A DNA stretch of 55,987 bases, counting the filler, from Dugesia japonica (taxonomy: Eukaryota), in assembly GCA_001938525.1 (NCBI GenBank). It is 6 parts of 6 records of this genome, joined end to end, with 100 filler letters (N's around TTAATTAATTAA, not from the genome) between each part and the next. Parts side by side here need not be neighbours in the genome. Positions count along the whole stretch, not along the records: positions 9,757 to 20,449 come from MQRL01604509.1; 5 more parts are not named here. One strand, written 5' to 3'. A model generated the notes under the pieces. It saw only the letters and a list, made by a program, of their open reading frames with translations, was not told the origin of the DNA and made no database searches. A program made the translations under genes and the position numbers. Shown here piece by piece: positions 1,051-53,419 of this stretch (its first letter is position 1; each line of letters opens with the position of its first letter).

Positions 1051-3140
1051 ATCTGCAGATCAGTAACCATTGAAATGAATATAATTTACTAATATGTATG
1101 TTGTTCCAATTTAATTTATTTTTCAATATCGAAATTTTGTCAATTTATATTTATATTTATTTTATAGTCGTAATTATTTCATATTCTCATATTTAATGGC
1201 TGTTGATAGTAGTAGCCATGAAAATTTTATGAAAATCATTTCATTATTATTATTTAATTAAAATTATTTCATTGTCAAAATTATTTATTCACATTATAAC
1301 TATTATAACATTTTTCATTCAACTTAAAACAATTTCAAAATATTGATAAAACACTCACGTTATAAACATATTCACGGAGCAACACATCAGCATACAGGTC
1401 AACATCGAATTATAATGTGATAATGNNNNNNNNNNNNNNNTTTTTTTATCATTATTTGAAAAAGACTGCTAAAACTGTTATAAATTGAGTTATTGCGAAT
1501 TATGCATTCTTTCTAACTTCACTAATTTTTAACTTATCAAGTAACAACTAACTGAATTTTAATTTTCAACTGCTTAGATACCAATTTCTTCCGTAAGTGT
1601 ATCCTAAACAATTTTTTTATTTCTTGACCGCCGATTCTGAACTTTCTTTTTCTGTATTTGGTTGATTTTAATACTTTTATGGTTTCGGCCTTGACTGTTT
1701 CCTAACATTATAATATTAGTGTTCTGATCCCTCGTGATTGATTACAATGTAATTTCTTGTGTGTCCGAGTTTTCCTATATTCCCAACATATTGATTATGA
1801 GATTTCAGGTTTGATAAAATTAAATTTTTTAACGAATTAATATATCATTTCTTCTTAAATAATTTATTTGCAAAATTCTAATAAATAATTCTCTTCTTTC
1901 ACTTTAAGATTCTAATTTAATTAACCTTATTAATTAATTAATTTCTTNTCGAATAATTCTAGTGGTTTATTTATTTTCGTTGTTAATTTATTTATATCTT
2001 TAAGTTACTGATTTTTTTATTAAATAATTTTACTATTTAATAAATCATTATCTCCGGTACTTGATTTTTTCTTTCTTATACTCTGATCTTGTATTTTGTT
2101 CTCTCTAGTCTTTCTTATTTTTTATTCTCTGTCTATTATGTTGTTCATGCGTCACTATATTTCTTTTTCTTACTTTTCTCCACGGAATTCATTTGATTAT
2201 CATTCTTCTGCTTATACTTGTATTTGTTTAAGTACTCGCGAGGTTCAACCAAGTTAGCTGTCTTATTTGAAACATTAGGATTACTAATAATTTCTAGATT
2301 TATTTTGACTAACATCTAACTGGACAAGAATTTCTGTTTTTTCTCGTAATAGGTATTTAAACATGACCAAATTAGTCATCAAACGTGTTATACAATAAAA
2401 TTTATTTCATCTTAGTATAAATTTAATTTAATTTAATGAGATTCAAGATATGTGATGAGGCTTTTACATCAGATCTATGCAAATTAACTACCTAAATGTT
2501 ACTATATTTTTACTAGTCCCCGTGAAGCATCGTGGGCCTCGTGTATGAGACCCCTGTTTTAGAAAATCACATATTAAACAATATAGAATAACATCGGTAT
2601 ATATTAAGAATAGTACATAGTTGTGATGTCAAAATTTTCAGACCTCCTCACCCCCAGGTCATCATACATCTACACAAAAAAATTTACCTCCTCTTATAGT
2701 ACATGATATCATTTTTGGACAGCTCCTTTTTACTACAACAAATAATTTTTNACTAAAATTAAAATATTTAGCTTTTAAAATGATATCCTAAGAAATATTT
2801 GAGTTGTTAAAACAGTTAGTTAAGAAAACTACTGTATTTTAGAGTAAAGTTTGGAAATGTTTCTTAATTAATTTTTACGCAAATTGAATCGGAAAATATG
2901 GCCACAGCTAACAATCTGCATAATTTAGTCATCAGTCTGTTATTTTTCTTGTAGGATGCCTTTTAAATTTTTTTATTTTTTTCAACCATAGTCTTCTATT
3001 TTGTAAAAAAATAATAATTTGTGTCATATTTATCAATTTATATTTTTATGTAAATATTTTATTCANNNNNNNNNNNNNNNNNNNNNNNNNNNNNNNNNNN
3101 NNNNNNNNNNNNNNNNNNNNNNNNNNNNNNNNNNNNNNNN

Positions 3141-3600
3141 TGATAGTCCAGCACTGGTATTATCCATTACAGCCTTTTAAAACCTGGTCAACTCATTACT
3201 GTGGATGTCTACTGCAAATAATTTGATGACATGATGATGTTGCTTGCAATTAAGCAGTTGATATTAATCAATAAAGATAGCCCAATTTTCTTGTCAGACA
3301 ACGCTTGACTACATGTTGCCCAAGCATTGTTGCTCGAAAACCAGAGATTGAAATAGAAAATTTTCTATCATTCACCGCATTCACCAAACTTTGCACCAAT
3401 TGATTTTCATTTCTTTTAGGTCATAGACAACTTCTTGATGAGAAAATTATTCAAATCTTAATGAGTTGTTAAAATGTCTTTCATGATTTTATTGNATCTC
3501 TATCACCAAACTTTTTCGCTGCTGGAATCAACAAGTTTCCATTAAGATCACAGAACTATGTCAATAGTGTTGATACATATTTCCAAAAAATGTGTTGCTT
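3141..3600 (+). mobile_element. Mariner (DD34D) transposase remnant, C-terminal part
   Basis: Decayed frames give DNA*LHVAQ (HDNARPHVA) and HSPHSPNFAPIDFHFF (HPPYSPDLAPSDYHLF). Confidence 0.8.
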
Positions 3601-6098: not shown

Positions 6099-6184
6099 CT
6101 GAAAATAAAAAAAGCAATTTCAATATGAATTTTAAAATTTCATGAACAAAAAACTTGTTTTACTAAAATTAATTGAAAATTTAC

Positions 6185-9081
6185 CTTGAACACTAAATTT
6201 ACCACTATTGTTATTTAAAGGTGACTTTGATGATTTACTTCTGGTTTTTCCATTGTCTTCATTTGTTACGTGATTAGACTGAATTGTAGACTCCAATTGT
6301 TTATTGGTTTGATTGTTTTTGCTGTTTTCACCGTTAGTTTTATTTGTACGGCTATAATCATTAATAGCACTTGGGATTGCGTTTCGATTGATAGAAACAA
6401 ATTTATTAGAATCAGTGGAGGGAAATTCATGATTAGGTAGAGAAGATAATATTTGAGATTGGGAAGTTGTTAATGGTACTGATGAAAGAGTTTGAATACC
6501 TGACGACGATAATTGGAAAGACTTTCGATTAGACGACTGGGGTAATGTATTTTTTTTTGATGTTGAAACATTAATCCAGTCTGATCCAACTGATTTCTCT
6601 GAATTGAGTTTTCCTTTGCCAATATCTTTGACTTTATGAGCTCTTTTGTTAGTTAGAGGTTTTTTGCGGGAAGCTCTTGGTTTAATATCGCGATAATCAT
6701 GTTCATTGGTGGATCCGTTAACTAGATCTGAGCTAAGAACTGCTGGCATTAAGGCTGGAGGTTTATTTGAAAGATCTTTAGGATCATCATAATTCTCTGA
6801 GGAAGAGCTATTATGGCGATATGACGATATTCTATCAAATTCTGTACAAATGACTAATTTGTCACAATCTCCTGTTTTCAAATCAATTTCTTTCTCTAAT
6901 ATTGGTGCGGGAGTATCATTTGTTTCAGATAGATCAGAATATCCTGGACTATGACTATTTTCTTCATCAGTTTTGTATTTTTCACTTGATATACAAAATT
7001 CATCGGAATTGAGTTTAGAAGGAAAGTGCTCATTTGTTATGTGCTTCGGTTGAATAGGATTTAGAGTAAACTTTTTGTAACGGTTAGATTCGTGAAAATT
7101 TAATCTAATTTTTTTCTCTGGTTTTCTACGTTTTCTTTTTAGTGAACTGTTTTTAAGACTTTCAATTTTATGAATTAAATTTTCATCGATGCTTGCGCTA
7201 CAATCTGACTTTGAAATAGGACTAGGAAGAATTTGACGTTGATGTGATATATGAATATTAGAAATGCCAGATATGCTTGGTACAATTATTGATTGCGAAA
7301 CTGGATATGGAGATGTGTTTATACCAAGATGACTTGTAGTAACGGTAGAAGAAAACTGGGATGATTTCGGCTTTGGTTGGATGGGTTTTAAACTACCCAG
7401 TGTTGATAGCCCAGATGTAGATGTGAGATTTGTTGTAACAGACGTCCGTCTAACTGACAATTGCCCATTATGATACATATTGTTAAGTGAATTGGTAACG
7501 GACTGCCCTGTAATACTACTCGTGCTTGTTATAGATGAAGTACTAGAAATAGTAGTGGATGTAGCAGGTAATATTGGTGTTACTGGTGATATACTTGAAG
7601 ATCTGATGTGTCGTGAAGATGGATTTGGAGAAGTAACATTCAAGTGAGATGTAATTGGATACATTCTATTAACATTCGTGTTAGTATTTTGATTAACTGA
7701 TACTTTTAATGGAACCAACGGTCGTTTTTTAATTATTACTGGGGTGGAAGACGGAATTTGGAATGATTCTGTTGCGCAATTAGTCTGAGAATTGGATTTT
7801 GTTGATTTAAATTTACGGCTTTGGGAAGAATGATTGGCTGACCCTATTGGGTTTTGATTTGGTTTAGGTCGAATCAATGTTGGGCATGATATCGTAGAAT
7901 TTGTAAAATTATTTGATGAATTGATCAATTCAACTGGTATGGAAACGGTAGGAGCTGTTACAGTACGTATACTGGGTGATGAATGAGAAATTACGGTGGT
8001 TGAAGATGTAAAATCAGAAACACTTTGAGATATATTTTTTGAAGTCGCTGAGGTTGATTTACTTATTGATGCAATTGACTCGATAGTCATTGCAGAAGGT
8101 CTATCTTCAATGTTGCACGAAAACGTCTCTTTAATTGAGCAAGTTGTAGGCAACAAAATATCTGAACTGACAATAACATTTTCTGATACTTTTGGCAAGG
8201 TTACTGAAAGCTCTTGGAATTGTGGAGACAAACTTTCTGATTTGATAAAAGGCTTCATATCGTTTGTTTGATCAATGCTTTCTTTTTCTGATATTTTTAG
8301 ATCGCCTTTATTTTCAATATAATTATATGATAATTTATTTTGACATTTTTCTGTTTCAGAATCAGAATTGAATTCAAAATTATTCGTTTTGATATTGATT
8401 TCTTTATTAATTATTCCATTTAACTTAATTGTTTTTACGGGTACATTTTCCTGGGCATAAGAATCAATAATGGTGTTGTTTTTTTCTTTTTCATTAATCG
8501 TTGGTTCGATTTTAATGGAATTATTTTTACTGTTATCATCAAACAAACTACTATTATCATCAACAATATCATGAGTGGAAATATTTTCTTTGCTTCCATT
8601 ATTATGGCATCTTTGTACATGATATTGATAAGCAGTCAGATCAACAAAACGTTTAAAACAATTTTCTTTACTACATGGAATTAAGTTGATATTATTATCG
8701 TCAATAGAGTTGGAGTTATAATCACACAATGCTGTCTTGTTTAACTTAGTGATAGATCTCGTTACTGATCTCGTTTTGCTACTTGTGGAAAATTTAGAAT
8801 AAGAATTTTTATCTGTATCAGAATCGCCACTGGCACTGGCCGTTGCAGATTGGTTAGTGGAATCGAAATAGTTAATTAGATTATTACTTTGCCTGGTGGA
8901 TAATTTCTTGATCATGCCATCTGAATTAGAGGCATTCATTGATTCACTTAATCGACGACTGTGACGAATGTTATTTGACCGTAGACCAAAATGATTTCCT
9001 GGATTTCCAACTTGTCGTTTTTTCCCTCGAGTTGAGCGATTAGATGGACGTCCTTCGAATTTTCCTAGATTTTCTTGAGAT
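6185..9081 (-). CDS. Large internal exon of a ZNF608/ZNF609/scribbler(brakeless)-like C2H2 zinc-finger transcriptional co-regulator
   Basis: Open frame of about 965 codons, extending upstream of the ORF-track Met to an acceptor TTTTAG| at 9082 (SQENLGKFEGRPSNRSTRGKKRQ, resembling the RGRGKR segment of ZNF608/609). It has a single C2H2 finger, CSKENCFKRFVDLTAYQYHVQRCH, and the family motif HSPGYSDLSE (cf. SPAYSDISD). The remainder is Ser/Thr/Asn-rich. Donor at 6184. The upstream exon was not located in the window. Confidence 0.8.
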
Positions 9082-9656
9082 CTAAAATATAAATTTACTT
9101 ATAAATTTATAATATATTTACTCATAATTTTATTAATCACTTTATTTGTTTAAATCTCGAAATAAACTCAGTGTCAATTAAACATTTCCAAATCAGAATC
9201 AAAATGTTTTAATAAATATGGTTCTGATTGGGAATTCTGTTAATAATATGGTTCTAACTGACATTATACAACACTGGCCGGGAAACATTTTGTTAACGGC
9301 ATATTAAGTTAATTTAAAAATTTAACATCACACCAATTTCATTTTAATGTACTTGACAAATTTGAATTTTTACATTTTTTTATAGTTTTGGAAGTAAATA
9401 AGTTTTAATAAACAATCAATTCATATTTTAATGAGAAGAATGTGCTTGTTTTTGTTGACATATTAAATTTAATCGTGATTCTATGCTCAATAAAATAAAC
9501 ATAAATTCGACATAGCACAACTGAGAAATTACCATGGCACACAGTTTGCCGACCACTGATATACAGTATAAAAGAAATGTTCGTTCTACTATTGTTAGTT
9601 ATAACCAGAGTTTTACGGTTATTGATAAAATTTTCAGTAGTCATTTAAAAAAAATT

Positions 9657-9756: not shown

Positions 9757-12151
9757 AATAATAATAATCTTGATAGTAGTGGTGTATTAAGAAAATTCAT
9801 AACCAAAAGTAAGATTTTTCTTAAAAATTATTGAACCTCAATAAACCAGAGTGTAACTCCAAACCACATTAGATAATCAAAGAACTAATGGTGACAAAAT
9901 AAATCTGACAGAAAACAAAGTATTAAAAATTCAAAGAATTTTACCTTCATCGAAAAAGAAATAAAATAATTAATTAATGAAAAATAATAAATTAAATGAA
10001 AATTCGTGAATTTCTAATGAAAAAAGAAAAATCAAAAATTCCTGAAAAGAATAAATAACTCAAAAAAAATGAATTAAAATGTTGAAAAGCCTAGAAAGCC
10101 TAAGTATCTAAACATTCTTTACAATTTGAGATATTATTTAACAAGAAAAAGATGAACGAAAAGAGATAAAAATCAATGAAAAAAACTTATAAGTATAGAC
10201 AAACATTATTATCTCTCATACTAAAATGGCTGTAAAATCGAAAAGAATTCGTTATAAAAGAATTTTAATGAATCTCAACATAAATCTGAGCTTTGAAAAT
10301 AATAGAAACTAAGCTAAATAGGAGAATAAAGAGAGTTAAAAAATAAGCATTAATGAAATATTTTATAATATGGTAGATTTAACAGAGTTCANTTTAACTA
10401 ATTATTAGAACTTTTAACGATATGTTAGATTTCTCGGTAAATTACAGTTTTTAATTTACCGATGATGACATTATTATATTATTGAAGATTGTTCTTTTGA
10501 AAATATGGTATTAAAAGGTATGCTAATGGTGCCCTAGTTAAATTTTTAGCATTCAGACTTACCCTATTTTATATTATAAGTAAGTAGCTTAGTAGAGTTT
10601 AAAAGTTGTTTTCTGAGCAAAGATTTTCTTAGTAAAGAGTATTGGCTAAATAAAAAAGAATAAAGTTAAATAAAAATTTTAAACCGGAAATTGATCATTT
10701 TAAAATATTGAATACTTAAATTGATTTATTATCCTCAGTAGTATGTGATTTCTTTATACCGTTAAAAGTTTAATAAGTGAAAAAGTGCATTAAAATACTA
10801 ACCTCAAAATAATTTATTGTATTCTAATTGGCTGCCTATAATATAAATAAAATAAATTTATATGCATAAAANNNNNNNNNNNNNNNNNNNNNNNNNNNNN
10901 NNNNNNNNNNNNNNNNNNNNNNNNNNNNNNNNNNNNNNNNNNNNNNNNNNNNTTTTTATTATAGATAAGATTAAAAACTTATTAAACTTTTAACAGTATA
11001 TTAAAAAATATATGATGATTTCCGGATATTTTAATTTAAATCTACTTTGCGATCGAATGTTTAAAAAAATTTGGGTTTTTTGAATTTGAAAACTTAGTTA
11101 CTTTAAACTTAGCTTGAAAAAGGTTACTTGGTCAGTAGTTTAATAACTAGTAGTGGTTTGTAAATGGAGAACTGGGTACATAAACTTCATGCTACACAGC
11201 ACACCTAAAGTTTTGGATAAAAGTAATTTGATAATAATTATTATAGTTGATGTCCAATTTTTCTTAAATAACGACTGAATATAATTTTTTTTTATTAATA
11301 TTACTTTTATAAAAATTAAGAATTCTTTAATTTTTTAAAAGAATAAATTTTTAATAATAACTTCATAGTTTTAAAATAATTTTAATTAAATAGAATAATT
11401 GAAAGGGATTTTAATTTTAAAATTTTATCAAAACTTACATTGTTTTAAACCTTGGTGGTGGATGATTTTTATGGGAGGGCTGAATACAATTATAAATAAA
11501 AATCACTACGAGTTAAAAAAACACATTTTTATTGACAAATATTTATTTAAACATATTTATCATCATAAAATTATAAAAACCTGTTAAACGTAATATGACA
11601 CAAGTATAGACAAGCCAAAATACGTAGTGCGGACTGCGCTGTTTGCAGCTCACGATATACCTATGTAACATATATACATACATATACATATATACAAAAC
11701 GTATATTACGGGTTACCCCCACCTGCTCAATACACTGACTAAGCGGTGTGGCTTGGTCTGCACCAACTGCGGCCATGATGAGTATGCAAGCGCACTGACT
11801 TATATAATACACACATACAGAACGCTTATCGAGGTAACTAGTACCTACACTTCAAAAAATAAACATATTACTTACGGAAATAATATTTATTTTTAAATAA
11901 TCGCATAATAATGTAATAGCTATAATAATTTTAAAATGTTTTTATATTGATGGGAGGGCTGCAGAGGTCTACTTAAGATAAAAGGTGTTATTAAATTTAA
12001 TCTTTAAAATTTAACATTTTTCTTAAAACTTTATAGAAAAATATACAATGTAAATATTAAAAGACAACGCACCTTAATTTAACTAAATATTTTATTAAAG
12101 TTAAAAAAAACAATTTAAACATTTTAACTAAGAACATTTATCAGCAAAAGA

Positions 12152-12516
12152 ATGAATATTAATAGATTTCCAATTCAATATCATCATTCGAAAAATTCTT
12201 GGATGACTAGAGAAGTCTTCGATATTTGGAAAAATGAATTGAATCAACAAATGAAATTAAATCAAAGAAATACATTATGGATTGGAAACAACGCATCCCA
12301 TCATGTTAAGATTCAACTAAGCAATATTGACATGATATTTCTAACTCGAAGAACAGCATTTTTAATGCAGCAAATTGAATGCCGGAATAATAAAATCTTT
12401 GAACGATAATTGTGAAAACCTATATGTTAAACCTTATATTTTCTATGTTGATGATGAAATAAGCGTATGTTCCAAACAGATTGACATTCTTGATGTGATA
12501 AAATTAAAAATTGATG
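12152..12516 (+). mobile_element. pogo/Tigger (DDE_1) transposase remnant, left part; the right part resumes at 17332-17460
   Basis: YHHSKNSWMTREVFDIW...NNASHH...IFL..T..MQ is a DDE_1 signature. Removing the insertion restores IKLKID-AWHNVTEITIINCFNKAF. Confidence 0.8.
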
Positions 12517-12770
12517 TGTCTGGGTTCCACCTGAACTAGATAGTAGAGAAAAATAGTGGCTGGGGAAAAGCAGCCTTCAGGGGAACCCGTTCAAGAATTT
12601 ACCCTACCGCCCCTAGGATAGGTATTCAGCTCATAGCGGTTGACCTCTCTCTTAATGGGAGGTACACACCTATAAACCTTTGTTTTTGGGTTCATTATTT
12701 TCCCTATCATTACTAGCAGAAGGAAGAAATTACGATTTTTAATTACATATATTTTATTTCAAGAAAACTA

Positions 12771-13168
12771 TTATAGTAAATCCAGTGCCCCTGGGTCTAA
12801 CCACTGGGTGGGATCCGTTATCGAAAAATTGAAGGCGGCGATGTCGTCATCGTCGTCCCATTGAGTCCAGGTTGGGTTGCCTATTTGGCGGGAAAGATCG
12901 GCAATGTATTGTTTGAGGAAATCGATCTTTCGTAACAAAAGTTGCTTTGACTCGGTTTCTAAGAGTTTGGCTTGAACCTCAAGTCGTTCTGTTTCTTCAC
13001 GACGAGGTCTAGTTTTTTTATCAATCGGTCACGTTGAGCCAGATGTTTAAGGAGAGCCCGGTCTGCTTTTCGTTTTAGGTGGCGCTCCAATAATAGGCGA
13101 CGCATGATCCGGTGGCACCTCCGTAAACTTGTCTGGAATACAATTCGTGGCACTAAATAATGAGACAT
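12771..13168 (-). pseudogene. LTR-borne accessory ORF D: basic region plus leucine-rich coiled coil and acidic tail, interrupted by a frameshift near 13015
   Basis: ATG 13168 (MSHYLVPR...RDRLIKK), then the -1 frame from the A7 run reads TRPRREETERLEVQAKLLETESKQLLLRKIDFLKQYIADL...WDDDD...ALDLL* (TAA 12773-12771). AATAAA at 12758-12753. Confidence 0.5.
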
Positions 13169-13324
13169 TAACAACGGTGGAGAATTACTAAATATCAGTG
13201 ATATTGAACCAATTTAATCAAGATCTAAGCGATACATATTAAGACCAAAACTACTATTTTTAAATTTTTATTTGTAGAACAGAAAGTTTAGGTATGCGGG
13301 GTGGATTTTGTCTGTGTGCTCTTG

Positions 13325-13609
13325 TCAATCATGAGGGGTTCGAGGTATGATTTTTCTTAAGACGCCGGATATCATTGACCAGTTTATTTTCGCGGTCATG
13401 GACCGGATGATCTCGGCAAACGACTCTACCTGTGCTTTCCAAATTCTTTCTTGGTCGTGGGCGGCCTCCATCTCTTTGCGTACGTTAACGCATTTATTTT
13501 TATAGCGTTTCACTTTTGCGTTGGCCGTGAATATCCCGGCTCCGAATCGACGTTTCGCCAGTCGATATAACTCCCAGAACATTTCGGTGTCCTCGCTGGA
13601 GTCTCTCAT
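13325..13609 (-). CDS. LTR-borne accessory ORF C (94 aa from MRDSSEDT), unknown helical/coiled-coil protein
   Basis: GC-richer open frame. Acceptor-like AG at 13651-13650 and CAG|ATG at 13611-13610. AATAAA at 13272-13267. Confidence 0.55.
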   Translation of the reverse strand: MRDSSEDTEMFWELYRLAKRRFGAGIFTANAKVKRYKNKCVNVRKEMEAAHDQERIWKAQVESFAEIIRSMTAKINWSMISGVLRKIIPRTPHD

Positions 13610-13798
13610 CTGCTTATTGGGGGCCGATGGACGGTTTAATGAGGAATCACTATAACATAAACACAATAAAATTATGTAATCTAAATAAGACTGCTTATAG
13701 ATCAAAACAAAACGAAACAATAAGGGGTTTTAACCACTCGAAAACAAAAGACAGAGAAAAACCAATTCCTAACTAAAACTTTATTTTCAATTGCTGGG

Positions 13799-14227
13799 TT
13801 ACACTAGCACATCTGTGATTTCCTCTTCAGAGTTTTCGTTGTTATTGCTGGTCAAGTCATTACGGGCACTCCATAAATAATTATGCACGAAGGAAGACAG
13901 CTGCGAAGTTGAGGGTAAGCGGTTTTTGGTGATACCGATCAAAGATGGACCATCAAGCCATAATCGTTCTACTTGTGGAACCTCGGTTGATCGTTCAAAA
14001 GAAAGTGGTGCCGGTGAGAAGGCGACTCTATCTCTCCTTGGGCCACACCAACTATAATAGGCTGCTCTCTCAGTTGCATCCCATTGTCGATCTGCAGGGA
14101 TTTGTTCAATCGGGACATTAGAACGATCTACTAGCACACCGGCGTCACGATTATAGGAATTTTGATACCGCCGGAACATGGTTTGACCGGAACGGATGTC
14201 CAGGCTCACTTCCCATTTATATTCCAT
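13799..14227 (-). CDS. LTR-borne accessory ORF B (142 aa), unknown protein
   Basis: Intact GC-richer ORF. Acceptor TATTGTAG| lies 10 nt before the ATG. AATAAA at 13785-13780, just after the stop. Confidence 0.6.
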   Translation of the reverse strand: MEYKWEVSLDIRSGQTMFRRYQNSYNRDAGVLVDRSNVPIEQIPADRQWDATERAAYYSWCGPRRDRVAFSPAPLSFERSTEVPQVERLWLDGPSLIGITKNRLPSTSQLSSFVHNYLWSARNDLTSNNNENSEEEITDVLV

Positions 14228-14430
14228 ATTGTCGATTCTACAATATCAACCGGTGAAGTTACATCTAAAGTCAATAGGTATAATTTGATAATATTTAGAT
14301 TTTATTTAAAGTGAGTAATTTAAAATTAAAATAAGACCTAGGGTTTATTTTACAAGAATGGCATATAACTCAACACCAAAACAAAATGTATTTTCATGCG
14401 AATGGTTTCCCCATGATTTCGAGTGATCTG

Positions 14431-14616
14431 TTATTCCTCATCTATATCCACTTTATGCTCGATTGGAAACATTTCAAGGAAACATTGGAGATCTGTCTCG
14501 TCGGAGTGCTCCACCTTGCCCCTTGTTAAATAGTGGGCTATTAATTGTTTTAGGCGCGTAGTACGACGCTGTTTCCGGATTTGACGAAGGGTGACTCGTA
14601 GTTCCGTTGAAATCAT
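14431..14616 (-). CDS. LTR-borne accessory ORF A (61 aa; basic N-half, acidic C-half)
   Basis: TTTTAATTTTACTCTAG|ATG. AATAAA at 14349-14344. Confidence 0.5.
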   Translation of the reverse strand: MISTELRVTLRQIRKQRRTTRLKQLIAHYLTRGKVEHSDETDLQCFLEMFPIEHKVDIDEE

Positions 14617-17600
14617 CTAGAGTAAAATTAAAATTATAGATCTAATCATGATTCCTTTCTCTGGGAAGCGACTAACTAGAGAGGTTAATCTCGATGAAAT
14701 CTTAGTTGCTGAAGATATGGGTGTGATTGCTGCGTAATCCTATTCGTGATACCCGCGGGATCAAAGGAAAGTAGGGGTGTGATTGAGAATGGGGTAGGGA
14801 ACGCTGGCAAGAGTATAGGGTCCTTTACAATAACCAGTTGTATGCATTCCTTACAATGTTACCATTAACATCCACACTAGCGAAGACAGAATTCTAACAC
14901 GGAGGTTATTATCAATGGTAGGTTAATCCGGTGCACCAAATGGCCTTAGTAATATCAACCATTCTAATTGTTACGATTAGAACGCTTACTGCAGTACTAC
15001 GAATTATCACATGGATAACCAGAGACGGGTAATAATAATCGCGAGTAATTTACGGATAAGAATGACAGTAACCCGAATTATAATGACAATAATATATGAT
15101 AGAAACGTCATAACTTTGCATGTCTTTTCACCTAAAGCATGTATTGACAGATAATAAGAGGTTATATAAAATAAAAATTCATATTTGTTAATAATTCTTT
15201 TATGGTTATCGCTATAATTTCATAGAACCAATTTGGCAGTTTACTATTTTATCAATCTTTTATAAGGCGCCTCTAATATTCCCTTCAGTACTAGTTAGAA
15301 TAATGATAATAATAAGACTTAACTGAAATTAAGATCAACATTTATTAATAGATTTTCCATCGTTATCATAATAATTTTGTAGAACTAATTAAGGGCTTAG
15401 TATTCCATCAATATCCAAAAAGGTACCATTAATTACTCTCTTTACCGTTAATTAGCATAGTGATTAATTAATAAGAATTTATCTAAAATTTAAAATAGCC
15501 GAAACAAAAATTTATTTTTCTACTTACGAAATAATTTTATACGAATGAAAAATTATGAATCTAACTCCCAATCATTATGAAGTGTTATACCCATATGTCC
15601 TGCTGATAACCGCACGATACTCATATGCTCTTGGTCCAGATTTATATCTCCACTAGAGTATTTGAGTTGCTAACTCTAATTAAATTTCGAACGAGAACAG
15701 AAAGTTGGTGAGATATTGCAAAGTAAGTTATATACACTTTGTTATTGATTATCCAGATAATTTTCTACTATGCGGCGCTCAACTGATTATCCACGAAAAA
15801 TAATAGCACACGGATACAACCTGCTGCTTGCCGAGTTATTTGTCTATATATATGATGATTTCTTTTGTTGCGACACTCCTTCACTAAGTAACAGTTGGTG
15901 TGTATGACTAGTGATGTGGATTCCTTAATGTGTGTAAGTGAGCAATCGGGTTGTATTTGAGTTATGGTGTTACTTAGTTAAAAAAAAAGAAAATATTGCA
16001 CAAGGCTATGTAGAAAATCTGGTGAGTAATCCTAGCGGCTACTCCTGAACAATTCATGCTTCCTTCACTGTTTTGCATTTAGTGTAGTTAAAAAGGGATC
16101 GGCAGAAGTTGTGTTACTTTCCATTTGATCTCACAATCACCGATGACGACCTGGCAAGTGATATCTAAAAATTATGTTTCTTTTTTTTGTTGTCTTTAAA
16201 ATTAGTTTTATAATTCATTAAACTAAAGATAAATTATCATCAATTATTTATTAGATATTAGTACATATTTCTTGAAATATTATACTGAATTTAACATAGA
16301 ATATTTTACTCTCTCTTTCTAAATTTTCTCTGCAACGGTTAAAGATTTGTGGGTTGACTGTATCGTCTGCGATAAACGGAAATTCTCTGTTTTTCGGCTA
16401 GATCTTCCTGGTTCACCACTAGAGTATGCGTATACTATAAGTTCGAGAGAAATTTCGATTAATAAATTAATTGATAAATAATTCTGCCTTACACTTTACT
16501 CGTGATACAATGGTAAAGAAGGTCCTTTTACAACAAATTTGTTCTTTTTCGTGATAATAGTTTATCGTTGGTTTAACTAATAAATTATGCACAAGTTTAG
16601 TTCGGTTTTTTTGTAGTTTAATCTAAAATTTCGGAGGGGTTTAAATACGATTTTCTTACGCAACTCGGCATCATTGTGATTGGACACTATTTTTAATTCA
16701 AATTTCTTCCTTTCCATTGGTTCTAGTGTTGATTTTTTATATTTTTATGACTTTCTTGGCTTTCTATTGGCCTCTATTTTTNAATCAACATGTGATGATC
16801 GGGTCTTTGTTACATTTTCTTTTCTTATTACCCTATTGGCCCAATCTTCGAACCTTTGCAGGACCCCTCCTGATGGCAGTATAATTTTCTAGTAGTGAAT
16901 TTCTGATGCCCATTTACTTTTTCTTTTCAGTTTTTCTTAAAGAAAGTCTCTGTGGCTTCCCTGAGCCGAATTATTCGTGTACACCGGTTTTTTGCCTAAT
17001 TTTACTTCTTTTTTTTATTTCAGAATTAATTAATATTTTTTGATAATTAATTATTTTCTCATAATGATTTTCCGAACTTTTATTATTAATTTAATAATTC
17101 TTCTTAATTCTCAATATTGATGTATGTTAGTTTTATTCACCTGATTCTTCGCATCCATCACCAGTTTTATTCTTTCTAAGGATTATTTTCGTCATATCTT
17201 ACCGAGATCTTAATTGTTTTTCCCTTTTGATTTTTTTATGTTTGATGAACATAATGGCCCGATTGTTTTTCTTTACTGATTTGAGCCTTCGGCCTTATTT
17301 TCTTTTCTCTAAGGGGTGTTTTACTCCAACAGATGCATGGCACAATGTGACTGAAATTACTATTATCAATTGTTTTAACAAGGCATTTTCTTATAATAAC
17401 CCGATTGAACAAATCAATGAATAAGAAAACGAAGATATTGACTATAAGGTTGTTTTTAAAAAAGTGAATTAAAAATTTTTGTATGTTGAGACTAAATTTA
17501 TTAAAATTATATTATTGGATATTTTAAATTAAATCATTAAAAACATTTTTGAAATAAACATAAAATTTTTGTGCAATCAAATATTTGATGAAAACAAATT

Positions 17601-17856
17601 CTTAATTTGTAGTAAATTTAAAATTCGTAATTTACAGTGTATATAATAAAATATTATAATTTTAATTCGTAGTTATACATTAGTAATTTTAGTAATTAGT
17701 AATTAACAATTAGTAATTTTCTTTTAAAATATATTTTTTTACAATTGCAATTATTGCGAGAATAATTGTTGGACATAACCATTGATCGTTTTATAGAATT
17801 CATTTAATATAAAAGTTTAGATCAAAATTTAGGTTTTATTTATCGATGTTGGATAA

Positions 17857-17893
17857 CAATTCGATATTTCGACCTTGTCTTCGTCAGGAATTG
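17857..17893 (-). ncRNA. Minimal type I hammerhead ribozyme (Penelope-associated)
   Basis: Minus strand reads CAATTC-CTGACGA-A-GAC(AAG)GTC-GAAA-TA-TC^GAATTG: 6-bp stem I, intact core, 3-bp stem II, palindromic minimal stem III (ATAT), AUC cleavage triplet. Confidence 0.8.
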
Positions 17894-17929
17894 ACTTTTA
17901 GTCAATTCAATTCAATTAAGTCAAAAAGT

Positions 17930-17966
17930 CAATTCCTGACGAAGACAAGGTCGAAATATCAAATTG
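17930..17966 (+). ncRNA. Second minimal hammerhead ribozyme copy (one stem I mismatch)
   Basis: CAATTC-CTGACGA-A-GAC(AAG)GTC-GAAA-TATC^AAATTG, with a G-to-A change right after the cleavage site. Confidence 0.7.
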
Positions 17967-19722
17967 TTATCCGATATCAATTAATAAAACCTAAATTTTG
18001 ATCAAAGCTTTTATATTAAATGAATTCTAAAATATATTTGTTATTATATTTTCAAATTTTACGTTTATTTATTGAAAATTTAAATAAATTAAATTAATGA
18101 AATATTTTTTTAATAAANNNNNNNNNNNNNNNNNNNNNNNNNNNNNNNNNNNNNNNNNNNNNNNNNNNNNNNNNNNNNNNNNNNNNNNNNNNNNNNNNNN
18201 NNNNNNNNNNNNNNNNNNNNNNNNNNNNNNATTAGTGATGAAACGAAACCTAATCCTAATGTATAAAATTGCATTATATTAGGTAATATTAGTTAATTTA
18301 GGTTGATTTTTCCCTGTGTATTTAGTTGGGAAAATTTATTGTACACAAATTATGTCTTGAGTTTTTCGATGAAAATATGATTTTTAAAGGGTTAATTGTG
18401 GTGTATTTTTCTAATGATTATAGTTGGCAAAATTATTTTGCACATAAATTATGTTACTTTTAATCGCATTTTGAAAAGGTCGGCGAATTATTTTAAAATT
18501 TTAGACTTTTTAGCTGGAAAAAAGTTTTTAGGCTTTTTAAGCGGTAATATTTTTTCAAGCTTTTTAGTTGCGAAAATTTTTTTACGGGAATTTATTAGGA
18601 TTCCGGTCAAACCGTTCATGTTGTTTAAATAATATGAAGATTTAAAATTTGTTTATATCAATTTTTTTGGGAATCCAGAACATCCAACATTTAAAAAATA
18701 ATATTTTCAATTTTTATAACATATAGATATTTTTACATCAATTAACTCAGAAATTTACGGCAATCATTCTTGGTTTTCCAAATATTTTGCACAGAATTAC
18801 TGTTTCAAACTTGTTTTGATTTATAAAAGTAATAAAAGTAACAAAGTAGAAATTAATAAAATAAATCGTTTAATTATACTAACATTTATTTATAAAAGTT
18901 TATTCAATCTTGTGAGAATAATTATTAATTATAAGAAAATAATTATTATTTAATAATTTTAGCCAATATTAATATTAGCGATTAAATTGAATATTAAAAT
19001 TTAATTAATTTATCACTTATCATCTTATCAAATATCTGTTTTAGTAGTGAAATAAATAATGTCTGAAAATATTAGTTTTGATTTGGAAAATGTTATTATT
19101 AATTGAAGATTTCTCTAACAAATATAATTACTAAGAAATTTTATTAAAAATAGATATTAAAGTATGTTTTTGATTTTTTGGGCCAGTTTTCAAAAAAATG
19201 CCACAAAAACGAGGTTAGGCTGTATTAATAAAATAGTTTGTTTTATTTATTCCATTGAGGTTTAAAAGTCGACAAGCAAGCCCACATTTCATCCTCGATT
19301 TTGATAAATCTTTCTCAATCTTTTGATTTGGTTTCAGTTAATATATTTGCAAGAGAAAATTTTTATATTTTTAAATTTTCAATATTTTCTAACATTTTTA
19401 AAAGATTTTGTGACAAACCATTTGGAAAACATAATATAATATAATCATATTTCATAATCATAATTCTATAATATAATCACTTATTAAACTTTAAGTAAGA
19501 TTTTATACATATAAATCTATTTTACTTATATTATCGGCAGCCAATCAAAATACAAGAAATTATTATTAAGTTAGTATTTTTCACTTACTAAATTTTAAAC
19601 AGTATAGCAAATAATATTTTATAACTTAATGATAAAAATAAATCTCATTAATTATTGCATTTAAAATGTCAATAATGAAATTAAAGAGTCAATGAATACT
19701 AAAATAAATTCATATAACAAAA

Positions 19723-20259
19723 ATGGAGGAAAAAAGAAAACAGAAAATGGATTATTTTTCGTATTGTGCAGTTTTACTATCTTTATGCTTTTTAATAATA
19801 GCTCTATCCAGTCGTCTATGGGGTTGTGGTTATATTATAACGGAATGCTTTTATGACAAACGCATCCAAGAACATTGGTCACGTAAAATGGCACTAGTGC
19901 TTTCAATAATATTCTTTTTCATTGCCGGAATATTAATGATAACTTTTTCCATACTTTTTCTCATTTCTTTATGTTCCGCAAAAACTAATAATTTCAAATT
20001 AAGAAAAGGTATTATAATAGCGATATTGTCGATGAATATGTTGGCAAATATATGTTTTGCATTGGCATGCCATAATATTCTATGGAATCAAATGCTGTTT
20101 CTTGTCACAGGTCTTTGTTGGAGTTTAGGTGCGCTATTAAGATATCATGCTGAAATTAAAATTATAATGAGAAATAAAAAAGCTGACAAAAAATTGAGGA
20201 AACAGATGGGAAAAGATACGTGTCCTGAACCGATTTTGCATCCTTATTCATCAAGTTAA
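19723..20259 (+). CDS. Intronless four-TM membrane protein, claudin/PMP22-superfamily-like (flatworm tetraspanning-orphan/Sm25 type)
   Basis: Intact 178-aa ORF with four hydrophobic segments, W-G-C-G-x5-C (LWGCGYIITEC) in loop 1 and a basic C-terminal tail. Context AAAAATGG; AATAAA about 40 nt after the stop. Confidence 0.7.
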   Translation: MEEKRKQKMDYFSYCAVLLSLCFLIIALSSRLWGCGYIITECFYDKRIQEHWSRKMALVLSIIFFFIAGILMITFSILFLISLCSAKTNNFKLRKGIIIAILSMNMLANICFALACHNILWNQMLFLVTGLCWSLGALLRYHAEIKIIMRNKKADKKLRKQMGKDTCPEPILHPYSSS

Positions 20260-20549
20260 CTTTAAATTTTCTCAGTCAAAGTAGTATTAAACCAAAATAA
20301 AAACAAACAGAACTGTATATTTTATTAATTAATTAAAAAAATTATTTTAGAAGTATATTAAAATTTTTAATTGCTTCTGAATTTAAAATAATAAATCTTT
20401 AAACTGCTCTTATTATATGTATTGAAAGAAATTATAAATCTGAAATTCCNNNNNNNNNNNNNNNNNNNNNNNNNNNNNNNNNNNNNNNNNNNNTTAATTA
20501 ATTAANNNNNNNNNNNNNNNNNNNNNNNNNNNNNNNNNNNNNNNNNNNN

Positions 20550-20806
20550 TTCCACGCCTGTAGTTAATCAAATTTTGAAAATCTTTGATAACATCTTTCT
20601 CCTTCTCAAATGCCATGCGTAAATGAGCTTGAAAACCTTCAGCTTTTTTCAACGTCTTTGCATATTCTTCCAACAAATTTTCATCTAGCAAACAAGAGAC
20701 TACTTTCTCCTGTTGTTTCCCATGAGTGAAGGTTTTAGCTTCAAAATACAATTCACATCGCTTGATAAATTTCTCAATATCATCTCCTCTGTAGAACACT
20801 TTTGGT
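20550..20806 (-). mobile_element. Gypsy gag N-terminus fragment
   Basis: FYRGDDIEKFIKRCELYF.... Near-identical DNA recurs at 35061-35100, just downstream of a tRNA PBS. Confidence 0.55.
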
Positions 20807-22729
20807 NNNNNNNNNNNNNNNNNNNNNNNNNNNNNNNNNNNNNNNNNNNNNNNNNNNNNNNNNNNNNNNNNNNNNNNNNNNNNNNNNNNNNNNNNNNNNN
20901 NNNNNNNNNNNNNNNNNNNNNNNNNNNNNNNNNNNNNNNNNNNNNNNNNNNNNNNNNNNNNNNNNNNTTAACTAAATAATAATATTTAGTTATCTCAATT
21001 CTTATAAGCTGAAATTATTAATTAATAATTATTTCCTCATAGGATTATTTATTTATTTGTGCATCTAATATTAATGAATATATAACACTTTTACTTAAAA
21101 ATCCAGGGCTTCAAATTTCATTAGAACTAACCCCCTATCATATTGCTTGATGGATTATCTATAAAAACAAATGCTCTAATCTCTATCTCAAACCTCACTA
21201 AAATATTTGTTTATGTATAATTTTGGTTCATCAAGTTAGTTTTAGAGCCTTCAAATCTAATTATATATATATTCAATGTTGCAACCTGTTACCATTGTCA
21301 TTTTCTATTTTGATTTTGTAGTTGAAAATAAATAATCTGGATAATATTTATTATTATATATATATCAACTTTTTCATTCTTTTTACTAATTTCTGTAGTT
21401 CATTTCCCATCTTTTCAAAATTATTAATTTTATAGTAATAATAATTATACTAAAAATATTACTCGCAGTCTTTCATTTATATGTTAACAAGTGTGTTTTA
21501 AATTGATAATGTTTTTAAATATAATGATATTTAGAAACTTATTATCTGACAATTATAGACTTTCTTTTTATACATATAATTATTAATAATATTAGTATAG
21601 AATTTCATTTAATAAATCTCATGTGTTAAGAATTTCTGAAGCAAATATATACGATCTGAAAGGGAGGTACTATATTTACCCCCACTCCCCAACATACTAT
21701 AATCTATTTGTTAATTATAACTATTGTATTTATATTATACTAGAAACAATGCATAAAATATGACAATATATGTTGAGCCTTTTCTTTGTTAGTTAAATTA
21801 ATAAAAAAACCTTAAATTAGCAAATTTGTATTAAGAAATCTTGTCTAAAAAAATCTACAAAAAATTGAATACCAAATTTTCAGGAATTACTTTATTGATT
21901 CATTTATGATAAATAATATTGATTTTTAAATAGATTTTATACAAATCGGACTTTTTCACTCAATTTCCGTAAAAATCCAATTAAAACCTTTTGCGCAAAC
22001 TAAAAACATGGGTAATTATCAACGAAATTATATAAAAATTTGATACCGCTTTATTTCAATTTTGCTATATTACGCATAACGTTGTTTTACACTAAATACA
22101 CTGGAAAAAATCTCCGCAATAATGTAATCATTACCTAATATGATGTTATAAAAAGTCTAAACTAAAACCTCAGATTAAATTTCTTACATCAGTAATCCTG
22201 AGAGGCGAGATTTTGGCTAGTGTGCTCAGTAATATATATTTCGTAATAAAATTGCTAGGTATTCTGACCTTTTTAGTAATATTTTCTCAAATTGGTTCAT
22301 TGTTTTCATACGATGGTTATTATTTCGCTCATTTGACGGGTTAAACTTTTTTATAATAATTTTTCTCATTTTGACTGAAATCATTAATATAATATGCATT
22401 GTTAAAAAGTTTACTTCAATTCCTATAGTCACGTGTTTAAGCAAAATAGTATATTTTTGATTCATTCTTACATTTTCAGTGAAGTAATAGATAGTTCGAA
22501 ATCTTTTGATTTCTTAGGTATTCATAAAGCACACATAATTCTTTTTAACTTTCTTTGAAGATGCTGTTTTGAGTACATTTTTCGAAGAGGAAGCCAAAAT
22601 TAGTGGTTTTCTTATCTATGATGATCCTATTGTTGAAAGCCTTTTGCACAGTTATTATTAAGTAAAAAAAAATATGTTTCTAATTGTAATCAGAAAAATT
22701 AGGCTGACCAAAAATTTATTATATTTATC

Positions 22730-25360
22730 ATATTAATATCACAAAGACTCCCCTATTTGGTTATTTTTAATATTTATATTTTATAATGTTAATATCACAA
22801 AGACTCCCCTATTTGGTTATTTTTAATAGTTATTTTTTTATCATGAAAAAATCACAAAGACTCCCTTCTTTCAACTTTTTTGATAGATATATTTTAGACT
22901 GTCCAATATCTTGCAATCATATCAAAAACTAATAAAACTACCTCAATATTTTAATACTGAATACAATATGAATACAATATGAAAGCAATATGAATGCAAT
23001 ATGAATGCAATACAGCAACACGTGCCTGGGAATTTTTATTGATTTTTTTAAAATAATGCGTTATGTATGCATGTCAAATACCAAAAGAATGCAACACAAA
23101 TACACTGAAAATCTCGTGCCTTGCAATTTTTTATTACTAAAGGCAATAGGTATGCATCTCAGATGCAACTCAGATGCAACACACATACACTGAAAGTCAC
23201 ATGTCTATGAATTTTAGACTACCCATCCCATGCAAAATATAGAGACCACCCTGATCTCATGCAAAAAATAGAGATTACCCCAATATCATGCAAAATATAG
23301 AGACCACCACTATTTCATGCAAAATAAATTAATTTAATTAAAAAAATTGATTTAATTTAATTAAATTATATTAAAAAGATTTCCACCCACCATTGCAATG
23401 AAAAATTTCTTTTTATTTCAATTGCATGCCAAAATAATTTTTTTAAAATTCAAACGAAAATATTTTTTGAATTTCCGACCAAAAATAAAAAGACTCCCCT
23501 CTTTCCCGTTCGAAAAATATAAAATCCACCTTTCCTAGTCAAAAAATACTCAAAATCCATCATTTTTATAAAAATAACATTACTTTCATCTAATTCATCA
23601 ATTTAAGCAAAATACATCATTTTTAACAAAAATATATATTTCCAAAAATTCCGTCACACATACCTGTCAGAAAAATTTCAAATAATTATCATAATATCTG
23701 ATAATTAATTGTCTTTCTACACATACCACTCTCCCCCGCCCAAAAATTTTTTTACCACTTTAAATATCATAGACCATATTACTATGGAACCTTTATATAT
23801 CATAGACCATATTAATGGAACCTTTAATCATAATAGACCATATAATAATGAAACTTTTTTATTTGATTAACCTAAATTTACATTAAATTAATATATAAAA
23901 GAAATAAACTCACCATTTTAAAATTCTCCATTTTAAATGCATTTAAGATATTAAAATTTAAAATTCAATACATTATTAATTTTTGTTATTTTAATATCTT
24001 AATTGCATTTAAAGTTAAGAATGCTAATTTATATTAGCATAATTATAATAATTACAATAATGATAATATAAAATTAAGTAATCAATAATTATATTGATTT
24101 TTTAATTTCTTATTATCATAATTGTAATTGTTATAATTATGTTAATATAAAATGAAAAAAAATTTAAATCTTTAAAAACTATTTTATTATTTACATGGCT
24201 ACCGATTATTTACTTAGTTACCATTTCTAGTTTGCATTATTTAGATAGTTACCCTATGTGGGAGAGGTTTATTTTAGATTATTGCTTTATTTTAGTGGTT
24301 TGAGTAGTTTAAAAAAAATTTCCAGGCAAGTGTTGGTGTGTTGCAATTGTGTTGCATCTGAGTTGCTTAACTATTGTATTTATTTAAAAGAAAATTCAAA
24401 ATGGCAGCTATATTGAGTTTTAAAAAAATCTGAGACTTGTGATTTTCAGTGTATGTGTGTTGCATCTAAGTTGCATGGCTATAGCATTTATTAAAAAATC
24501 AAAATGGCGGCTATGTTTAGTTTTAAAAAATCAAAATCGTGGCAATGTTCACTTTTAAAAAATCAAAATGGTTGCTATTTTGAGATTTAAGACATCAAAG
24601 TGACGGTTATGTAGAGGTTTAAAAATCAAAATGGTGGCTATGTTTAGTTTTAAAAATTTTCAAAAGTGTGATTTTCAGTTTATGTGTGTTGCATCTGAGT
24701 TGCATACCTATTGCATTTATTAAAAAAATGCAAAATGGTGGCTGTATTGAGTTTTAATTTTTAGTGTAAGTTCGTTGCATATGAGTTGCATTATTATTGA
24801 AAAATTCTCAGTCACGTGTTTTCAGTGTATGTATGTTGTAGCTGTGTTGCATTTATTAAAAATATCTATCAAAAAAAACAGCAAAAATGGGGTCTTTGTG
24901 ATATTTTCATGATAAAATATATCAAAAAAAGTTCACAGAGGGGAGTCTTTGTGATATTATCATAATAAAATATTCTAATAAAAGTTCAAAGAAGAGGGTC
25001 TTTGTGATATTTTCATGATAAAATATTTCTATCAAAAAACTTTGATATTTACATGGTAAAAAAATATCAAAAAAATTCAAAGAGAGGAGTCTTTGTGATA
25101 TTTTCATGATATAATATTCAAATTAAAACTTTTTTTACAAGAATATAAAAAAAGATTTATTTTTTCATAAAAACCTTAACTATATAATTTTTTATATAAC
25201 GAGCATATAAGTGATGTAATTTTAAATAAAAAAAAGTATCATTAGTGTTGCAATTTTTAATAAAAAATCTCATTACTGTTGCAATTTTTAATAAAAAGTC
25301 TCATTAGTGTTGCAATTTTTAATAAAAACTATCATTACTGTTGCAATTTTTAATAAAAAA
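22730..25360. repeat. Modular foldback/tandem repeat region, probably the terminal or non-coding part of the adjacent Maverick
   Basis: ATCACAAAGACTCCC x3 (22740-22865) is mirrored by GTCTTTGTGATATT x4 (24890-25105). ATGCAACTCAGATGCAACACACATACACTGAAA (~23163) is mirrored at ~24445 and ~24675. Tandem units CATGCAAAATATAGAGACCACC, AAAATCAAAATGGxGGCTAT and CATTAxTGTTGCAATTTTTAATAAAAA are also present. Confidence 0.75.
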
Positions 25361-26970: not shown

Positions 26971-27960
26971 CTAAAGCTTTCGCAAACTTAATTGACTCTG
27001 ATTTATTCCACAATTCATATTCTTATCCAAATATCCCATATTTCGTACTATAGTTTGCATATATGTTGTGGCATAATTATCGTTTGCAAAATCCTGAGTA
27101 TATATTTCTCGATGATTGGTGTTTTTCGTCAAGGAAACGGACAGAGCATCTAAATTTTGATATGTTGAACTTGAGCTTATATTCCTTATAAAACGATGAA
27201 CTATCTTTACTAATTGTAAATGCAACGACTTCTTTAGTTCTTATTGGGTAAACAGCATTTCGCTTTTTTAGACTCATTTGATGAGCAATTAGTACTGAGG
27301 ATTCAACGTGTACACGTCTAACCATTAATTTTGCATCTAGTAATACATATCTTGGTTTAGTAGCTGCAGATTCCAAACAAATCTTAGTAGGTGATCGTTT
27401 CAATCGAATATGAACATTGACACCTGGAATAAGGTATTTTGGTTGATCCATGAAATCAAGTTGCAATGAACCGCATAGAACCAATTGTTTTGATATTTTA
27501 ATAGACTTCTTTCTATCTGCTTCTGAACCATATTTCATTGCTGCAAGATATTTATTCTTGCTATCATCGTTATAATTTAATATAGTTTCAATTATTGCTT
27601 TATGAAGATAAGATCCATTTCCACCTTCAATTTTGAAATATATTAAGCGAAAGAATTACATCCTTAAAAAGCGCATGCAGCATATAATTACTAGGAACTG
27701 CATCATGAGTGTCATTCAAATCTTTACCAGCCTTATCAACCACCTTCACTTTAATATACAATAAAGTATCATTCAAATCCAAATATTNTGTTTGAGATCC
27801 ATAAAGAAAAAACTCTACATCACTTTGTGATTCAGAAATTGAATTCATAGAAAAGACATCTTCAAAAGTATCACTTTGAACTACAGCTTGTGGAGATGGT
27901 CGATCAAAAATACATAGTTCAGTTTTACCGCAAATCATTTTTCAAAGATTGTTCCATGTC
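26971..27960 (-). pseudogene. Maverick/Polinton major capsid protein (PY, double jelly-roll), fragmented
   Basis: KTELCIFDRPSPQAVV...DVEFFLYGSQTxYLDLNDTLLYIKVKV...LQLDFMDQPKYLIPGVNVHIRLKRS...AVYPI match recalled Polinton MCP motifs. Contains frameshifts and an internal deletion. Confidence 0.85.
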
Positions 27961-27964
27961 CTGT

Positions 27965-28377
27965 CATTCGTTTGTATAAACTGGATCCATGAGATTTCTG
28001 ACGTTTTCTACTATTTTGTGGTGTTTGGACTTGATTTGATAGCATATTTGTTATTTCAGATGGTATTTTATTAGTTATGCTTTGCGGTAATATAATTTCT
28101 ACTTTTGGAATCATACTAATTACTCTACTAGGTTAGGAAGAAACTACATTATCAAGTGCAGCTAATGGATTAGATTTCAATGTTGGTAGTATTTTTCCAT
28201 TATTAGTTAGAACATTCTGAGCTGTTTTCATATCAGAAGAACTAATACGTCTAAGAATAAGCAAAGCAAAACTCCCTTTGTTCGAAACCAACCAGATACA
28301 TAAAGTTTTTCGAGAAAGTAAGGTAATTCTCCACCTGCTTGACTAGTACTATACAATGATACAATATCAGGGTTCAT
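27965..28377 (-). pseudogene. Maverick small core-like protein lying between penton and MCP
   Basis: MNPDIVSLYSTSQAGGELPYF has a QxGG motif like adenain-type cleavage sites. Position in the capsid module fits. Frameshifted. Confidence 0.55.
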
Positions 28378-28379
28378 TA

Positions 28380-29482: not shown

Positions 29483-30122
29483 AATTTTTGTCTTGGTTTA
29501 CTATTTGTGTTACTTATATCTCACTTTCTCTGTTGTTATTCAGAAATATTAAATTACAATTAATACGATATTTTGACATTATTCTACACTCGTTTTTGCG
29601 ATTTTCAATAGCAACGAAATCAGTTTCAATAAACTTTTCTTTGTAAATACTTGTTCCGAAAAAAACGTTATTAAAGAAACATTCAAAGTTATCATGATAA
29701 TTTAGTAACTGTGAATTCATTAAATTGACCATAAACAATGTTTTTGGAACTGCTGATTTCTGAATTGTGTATTTACGAAAACTTTTCTCCTTGTATGTAT
29801 CAATAAAAACGACTGAATCTTCAAGTAAATCAAGCTTCAAATTTCATTAGAACTAACCCCCGGGATTTACATTGCAAAATACAAAGATCATATTGCTTGA
29901 TGGATTATCAATAGAAACAAATTCTCTAATCTCTATCTCAAACCTCACTAAAATATTTGTTTATAGTATAATTTTGGTTCGTCAAGTTAGTTTTAGAGCC
30001 TTCAAATTTATATATATATATANNNNNNNNNNNNNNNNNNNNNNNNNNNNNNNNNNNNNNNNNNNNTTAATTAATTAANNNNNNNNNNNNNNNNNNNNNN
30101 NNNNNNNNNNNNNNNNNNNNNN

Positions 30123-32760: not shown

Positions 32761-33049
32761 CGATTTAAGTTATTAAATGTCTACAAGAACTTAAAGTCAT
32801 GACAAATTTCAACCTTTCTCGAAAAGCGAGTTTATAACGAGATTTCCAAAACAGTTAGTTTATTGAGTATTTGTTTGTAGTGTAACTCAACCGCTGCGCC
32901 ATCATTGAATTTTCTTTTAATATCAAATGTTGCATGAATAGAGAATTTTCAGCATATTCCTTACTATCTCAGATCACCTTTTCGCAACGCAATGATTTTA
33001 TTGAATTTATTAAAGAATCTATATTCCTCTGCTTTAACGTCTAATGTAG

Positions 33050-53360: not shown

Positions 53361-53419
53361 AGGTTGTTTTGATCATAATGTGTAACTATGCGATATATTT
53401 AGCTTTTTTCCGTATTTTC

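Follow-up and report, generated by a model that had tools for sequence, protein, structure and literature searches.

The DNA analysed here, a stretch of 55,987 nucleotides (nt) from Dugesia japonica (assembly GCA_001938525.1) that we refer to as the window, contained at 12,517–17,331, in the part from record MQRL01604509.1, an insertion of 4,815 bp with TG…CA ends. We considered it a probable giant solo long terminal repeat (LTR) carrying an accessory gene cassette, previously unremarked: the insertion probably derived from a large Gypsy/Metaviridae-type retroelement, its LTR status being assigned by exclusion, and its minus strand held a group of conserved short open reading frames (ORFs).

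Insertion into a pogo transposase remnant

The element lay in a dead pogo transposon as an integrase-style insertion, with a 4-bp target site duplication (TSD). Its termini read TG(T) at 12,517 and (A)CA at 17,331, and plus-strand copies of the TSD, GATG, flanked it at 12,513–12,516 and 17,332–17,335. To the left was a remnant of a pogo/Tigger-type DDE_1 transposase (12,128–12,516, plus strand), itself frameshifted, of which 12,128–12,406 matched PF03184 with an E value of 3.2e-7. Its frame was open to the junction, ended at 12,515 and continued in register at the right TSD into the right part of the remnant (17,332–17,421, plus strand). The two short pogo junction pieces, searched separately against Pfam, gave no match.

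Read contigs were taken from 4 of the 24 listed sequencing runs (DNA runs including X1 and X4, and RNA runs X10 and X13). A diverged pogo contig found in both DNA runs used, a paralogue of the interrupted site, lacked the insert and passed from 12,516 to 17,346 through 12 other letters. In run X4, a contig of 242 nt crossed the left junction with no differences, and summed contig depth, which does not equal copy number, rose from 38–75 in the left flank to 4,100–32,000 just inside the element. In the right flank the depth was 389–1,199; because this flank is itself repetitive, depth did not sharpen the right end. By itself, the pattern of TG/CA ends with a TSD was weak boundary evidence. TG, CA and a matching 4-mer occurred in 206 of 1,000 random pairs of ±50-bp windows, and the real boundary windows contained three such combinations, including an alternative left end at 12,496. 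Chance matches in 21% of random window pairs, together with a gappy assembly (27 runs of N), would favour an assembly artefact or a chance boundary call, yet this explanation was hardly credible, since the site was defined by the pogo frame and the paralogue, and an independent run supplied a contig exactly across the left junction. These observations indicated that the insertion is real, and the left end at 12,517 was well supported. The ends, the GATG duplication and the clean interruption of the transposase described in the first-pass annotation were thus borne out by the in-frame split, the insert-free paralogue and the junction contig; its boundaries, given there as exact, held independently on the left and were less sharp by depth on the right.

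Comparison of the two ends gave 8 matches in the first 20 bases and 23 in the first 50, which indicated that a terminal inverted repeat (TIR) was absent, and no terminal direct repeat was found in the element. A Pfam scan of five internal ORFs returned no match of any kind below an E value of 0.03, and tblastn of 81 pol relatives against the element returned none, in agreement with the earlier statement that neither gene lies inside; tRNA and Rfam searches also gave no match. A non-autonomous Ginger-type DNA transposon, which had been named as the alternative should the insertion not be an LTR, would share the TGT…ACA ends and the 4-bp TSD of Ginger1 and Ginger2. According to the portion of the Ginger description available to us, Ginger1 has TIRs of 40–270 bp and CCGG/CCGT targets, and Ginger2 has TIRs of 50–180 bp and a preference for RTATAY (PMC2836005), whereas the insertion had neither the required TIRs nor these targets, its target being GATG. 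A Ginger-type transposon was therefore rejected for want of a TIR, and we regard it as very improbable. With this alternative failing, the combination found here (TG…CA ends, a 4-bp TSD at a clean insertion, neither gag/pol nor a long TIR, and multiple copies) left the solo LTR proposed earlier as the best reading, reached by exclusion only.

A minus-strand cassette of short ORFs

The minus strand at 12,771–14,620 contained a 1.85-kb cassette of short ORFs, designated A, B, C and D/E. ATG-initiated ORFs covered 60% of this interval, compared with a mean of 8% in block shuffles, none of 1,000 of which reached the observed value, and elsewhere in the element there was no such ORF of at least 56 amino acids (aa). 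ORF A (61 aa, 14,431–14,616) had TAG directly before its ATG, and ORF B (142 aa, 13,799–14,227) had AG 10 nt before. ORF C (94 aa, 13,325–13,609), predicted to be all-helical, had CAG directly before its ATG, and ORF D (69 aa, 12,959–13,168), basic and leucine-rich, had AG 19 nt before, so that the upstream AG stood at 0, 10, 0 and 19 nt in A, B, C and D, respectively. ORF E (about 69 aa, 12,771–13,028), with an acidic, Trp/Asp-rich end and no ATG of its own, overlapped ORF D in a different frame; in this copy the two may be pieces of a single broken D/E gene, with E as the second. AATAAA followed the stops of A, B, C and E at 82, 14, 53 and 13 nt, the last at 12,758. Its presence in all four spacers was reproduced in 0.55% of 2,000 shuffles, and its presence within 90 nt in all four, a limit set post hoc, in none of 2,000.

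ORF B had a homologue, P0001, with 40 of 76 residues identical (53%), the same start Met and an E value of 1.3e-17 in a search of 1.84 billion representatives. The only other match of ORF B, a fern LRR protein, was judged to be due to chance. The start of ORF B looks WW-like, a resemblance that had no support from Pfam. For ORF E, two loose-end consensuses from run X1, built from 17 and 15 contigs, were translated by hand as diverged copies; of 20 codons, 5 were identical, 9 differed silently and 6 were replaced, and there was no stop. The excess of silent changes had a P value of 0.004 on the assumption that one quarter of changes are silent. These comparisons, made at the level of sequence, showed coding constraint on at least ORFs B and E. 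Whereas the first-pass annotation had treated the insertion as the footprint of a giant element, by implication non-coding, that implication did not hold in view of the ORF coverage, the ORF B homologue and the silent changes in ORF E. Family depth peaked over ORF C (18,908 and 10,764), the start of ORF B and ORF E and dipped in the spacers, with the highest bin in the non-coding end. Contigs ceased to align at the stop of ORF A and resumed at the ATG of ORF B (joint 14,227–14,432, with a short side of 22 nt).

A single long spliced gene running from A to E was set aside, despite a phase-compatible junction from B to C, because the ORFs come with stops and AATAAA signals of their own and because the homologue of ORF B is short and begins with the same Met. 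Protein searches gave no homologue for ORF C or ORF D, and ORFs B, D and E and alignment A1 had no relatives in public viral or metagenome contigs. In external contigs, one of two ORF C candidates passed, without a locus, and this was probably a short match arising by chance. Metagenome contigs had no match to a 23-mer from the left end; a 15-mer had 58 matches in viral contigs, none of which extended (longest alignment 27 bp, best E value 0.06). Searches with the cassette proteins against PHROGs and PDB sequences gave nothing significant and an Atlas search gave no usable match. Predicted models of cassette proteins were of low confidence, with predicted local distance difference test (pLDDT) values of 45 and 64, and a viral fold search with ORF C returned no match at an E value of 0.001. 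The function of the proteins had no family, fold or structure match to draw on. Our guess is that ORFs B, C and D/E probably encode small regulatory or host-interaction proteins; the D/E product might, by composition only, be likened to a transactivator that is basic, leucine-rich and acidic-tailed.

Comparison with other retroelements

At 47,402–55,240 on the minus strand, the window contained a decayed Gypsy element with an integrase and an env-like region, followed by BIR, RING and coiled-coil ORFs. The integrase matched its eight best pol relatives at 41–46%. The env-like region ended, as judged by eye without database support, in a membrane-like segment; after it came a separate BIR plus RING gene, which was IAP-like, and the coiled-coil ORF. 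This pol-then-env order differs from the gag-env-pol order of reported flatworm env-bearing elements. A gap at 47,302–47,401 interrupted the Gypsy element before any LTR, and the insertion had no DNA or tblastx similarity to this element. The small accessory ORFs at its end had similar AATAAA…AG-ATG spacers, and the best match of ORF C among 240 window ORFs was the last of them, at 47,883–47,353. The score of 55 was reached in 3 of 500 best-of-all shuffles, a marginal result, and BLASTP aligned the two with 9 of 24 residues identical and an E value of 0.003. The relation between the two elements, raised as a possibility in the earlier annotation, was therefore weak: it had no DNA or tblastx similarity behind it and drew on one marginal protein match and the similar spacer layout. 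This suggests that the insertion and the Gypsy element share a design, and not that the insertion is the LTR of that element.

Among known planarian giant elements, Burro has an internal region of up to 25 kb and a total length of more than 30 kb, and its gag-pol polyprotein includes env and BIR, in the portion of the account available to us (PMC6431247). These two lengths imply multi-kb LTRs, and together with thousands of copies, accessory ORFs and an AT-rich host genome they make Burro/GYPSM1 similar to the system described here (PMC6431247). The 4.8-kb length fits the Burro figures, and the low GC and repeat content of the window suggested a planarian host; membership in Burro is unproven. 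In the 47–55 kb element, unlike Burro, the env-like region and BIR follow the integrase, and that portion of the Burro account names no ORFs inside the LTRs, unlike the cassette found here (PMC6431247). Six gag-env-pol elements of Schmidtea mediterranea are tabulated without LTR coordinates in the available part of another report (PMC13524379). The first 400 letters of the GLT2 probe (Table S1 of PMC8532177, the part of that source available), read by eye on the reverse strand, showed an AT-rich spacer, an AG and a long open frame; this layout resembles that of the cassette, and no sequence match to it was shown.

Extra genes in long or coding LTRs have precedents of other kinds. In the portions of the sources available to us, sag and rem of mouse mammary tumour virus (MMTV) and nef of human immunodeficiency virus type 1 (HIV-1) are encoded in U3 and expressed from the 3' LTR copy by splicing (PMC12789967). 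The cassette resembles MMTV sag and HIV nef in placing protein-coding sequence within an LTR (PMC12789967); the viral LTRs carry one or two genes, in contrast to four or five ORFs with candidate poly(A) signals in 4.8 kb here, and those genes have no sequence relationship to the cassette. Vertebrate retroviral LTRs are of the order of 1 kb. In the plant lineage, Ogre LTRs are 1.9–6.5 kb long (PMC6431247) and Retand carries antisense accessory ORFs near its 3' end, outside the LTR (PMC11963269); as far as the accessible parts of these sources go, the extra ORFs of Ogre and Retand lie in the internal region, whereas the ORFs here lie inside the LTR. The spacing within the cassette also resembles that of flatworm operons, in which same-strand genes less than 300 bp apart are separated by a poly(A) signal and then an acceptor and are resolved by spliced-leader (SL) trans-splicing; in the portion of the source available, those operons are described for host genes (PMC12582326). 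No SL reads were seen at the cassette in the RNA data used.

Family structure, expression and significance

The insertion belonged to a dispersed, multi-copy family, with summed depth of up to 32,000 compared with 38–75 in the left flank. Depth was 846–32,177 over 12,582–14,715, 27–326 over 14,716–16,655 and 1,562–3,253 over the bins of 16,656–17,237; these values are read only as abundant, conserved ends flanking a subfamily-specific middle. A conserved end with a variable middle is often seen in LTR subfamilies. The non-coding terminal block at 12,517–12,770 had the highest family depth (27,986 and 32,177 in the bin 12,582–12,775) and is a candidate R/U5 should the minus strand be sense; its plus strand had a TATA-like site at 12,671 in addition to a GC box near 12,608, and its predicted RNA fold was not unusual (z −1.0). 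The low-copy, non-coding middle (14,716–16,655) contained a degenerate tandem duplication of about 160 bp at 15,151–15,490, with a 68% self-match, and TATA-like sites at 15,264 (minus strand) and 15,163 (plus strand). The high-copy terminal block at the other end (16,656–17,331) was 48% A on the minus strand and is a candidate start of U3 under the same orientation. A 20-bp, 80% inverted pair (12,631–12,650 and 14,678–14,697), which may be due to chance, bracketed the ORF cassette near the drop in family depth.

Under the solo-LTR reading, LTR-LTR recombination would have removed the interior of a full element previously inserted into the pogo remnant, and the length of the LTR may reflect uptake of the parent's 3' accessory-gene cassette. 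Promoter-type motifs for a U3-R-U5 layout were present on both strands, and RNA depth was very low. We gave an even chance, within this reading, to a layout in which the minus strand is sense, ORFs A–E lie in a U3 of about 4.5 kb and the last 250 bp form a short R/U5. This orientation is favoured because the ORFs lie on the minus strand, because the first 680 minus-strand bases are A-rich like the 47–55 kb neighbour (48% A, compared with 40% in the sense strand of the latter), and because the most conserved block then becomes R/U5. Each ORF would serve as an alternative last exon, with an acceptor, the ORF and its own poly(A) signal, expressed from the 3' LTR copy. A plus-strand sense with an antisense cassette was tentatively retained, at a clearly lower probability, because of the plus-strand GC box and TATA-like site near the left end, and a layout combining a very long R and a promoter near 15,260 seemed doubtful.

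Several observations weigh against a coding solo LTR of this kind. Within the element, run X10 gave an RNA depth of no more than about 2 and run X13 a depth of 0, and no splice joints occurred there in these runs, about 25% of each of which was covered. Two AATAAA motifs lay inside ORF C. A third loose-end consensus, over ORF C, had stops in the reported frame; it read open when shifted by one base, with an agreement of 0.67. ORF D was not a depth peak, and the match of ORF C to the 47–55 kb element weakened under block shuffling, in which 12 of 500 shuffles reached the score. None of five published BURRO1/GLT2 primers matched the window (available parts of PMC8532177 and PMC10954484), including none of the three BURRO1 primers, whose place within BURRO1 is not known, and primer matching showed no sequence link between the insertion and Burro. 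No paired copy, primer binding site or polypurine tract was found among the best 24 of 1,703 loose ends. The sequence adjoining the termini of other copies was not visible there because a repeat resembling a miniature inverted-repeat transposable element (MITE), at 17,737, filled the loose ends listed. That MITE-like repeat (17,737–18,030) was of very high copy and contained a 109-bp inverted pair (17,791–18,032); relatives of it lay near 30,644, 35,714, 41,481 and 46,075. Finally, the ends and the middle of the insertion were 100- to 1,000-fold apart in depth, and the 4.8-kb form may therefore be rare or composite.

The last of these points bears on a composite origin, in which the two high-copy blocks form an LTR of about 2.9 kb and the middle 1.9 kb arose by secondary insertion or by recombination. 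The depth of 27–326 in the middle, against thousands on either side, and the inverted pair around the cassette would agree with this; in opposition to it, the middle, across which depth climbed gradually with no step at both edges, was marked by neither a long direct nor a long inverted repeat, and a contig join from 14.7 kb to 16.6 kb was absent among the best 15 of 65 joints. We consider a composite distinctly unlikely. A similarly small probability was assigned to a stand-alone non-autonomous unit, never paired as an LTR, that bears a small gene cassette of its own and is copied and inserted by a retroviral-type integrase acting in trans. Such a unit would account for the self-contained set of a promoter-like middle, an ORF cassette and poly(A) signals, and for the lack of internal retroelement sequence attached to either end among the loose ends listed, but the latter is explained by the scope of that list, the best 24 of 1,703. 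No animal class that combines TG…CA ends with the lack of both a TIR and an LTR pair is known to us, which counts against a stand-alone unit.

Other features were recorded in the window. An integrase fragment (rve, E value 1e-5) was located at 95–385 on the plus strand, and a gag-like fragment, recognized by eye, at 20,494–20,967 on the minus strand. A 988-aa open exon at 6,132–9,098 (minus strand), Ser/Thr-rich with one C2H2-like finger and a weak zf-C2H2_aberr match, presumably resembles the ZNF608/scribbler host genes. At 19,708–20,259 (plus strand) there was a single-exon ORF of 183 aa with several hydrophobic segments, claudin-like by eye, which had no significant Pfam match and was absent from the protein collection. 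A cluster of minisatellite arrays with periods of 11–56 bp occupied 22,719–25,360. ORF fragments at 27,077–29,843 (minus strand) had no Pfam match, and we take them to resemble Polinton major and minor capsid genes; fragments at 31,265–33,568 and 44,990–45,330 presumably resemble hAT-type (ZBED/SCAND3-like) transposases.

A giant solo LTR alone would be modest news, being an expected by-product of known planarian giant retroelements. Interest attaches mainly to the cassette, which could explain the LTR length through captured accessory genes, leads one to expect small proteins, as yet unannotated, from a very abundant repeat, and provides targets for work on self-regulation or host regulation by giant retroelements. 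Such genes would routinely be missed because repeat pipelines mask LTRs as non-coding. No description of a multi-gene cassette within an LTR of a planarian came up in the literature searched, which excluded Repbase and Grohme et al. 2018, either of which may already annotate it. More speculatively, and with little probability attached, the LTR could be an operon-like unit in which a promoter in the variable middle drives four genes, with their mRNAs separated by alternative last-exon splicing or SL trans-splicing. If this were true, the cassette would be the first multi-gene LTR-borne cassette that we have found described for an invertebrate retrotransposon, and every solo LTR of the family would be a potential source of small regulatory proteins after the loss of gag-pol.

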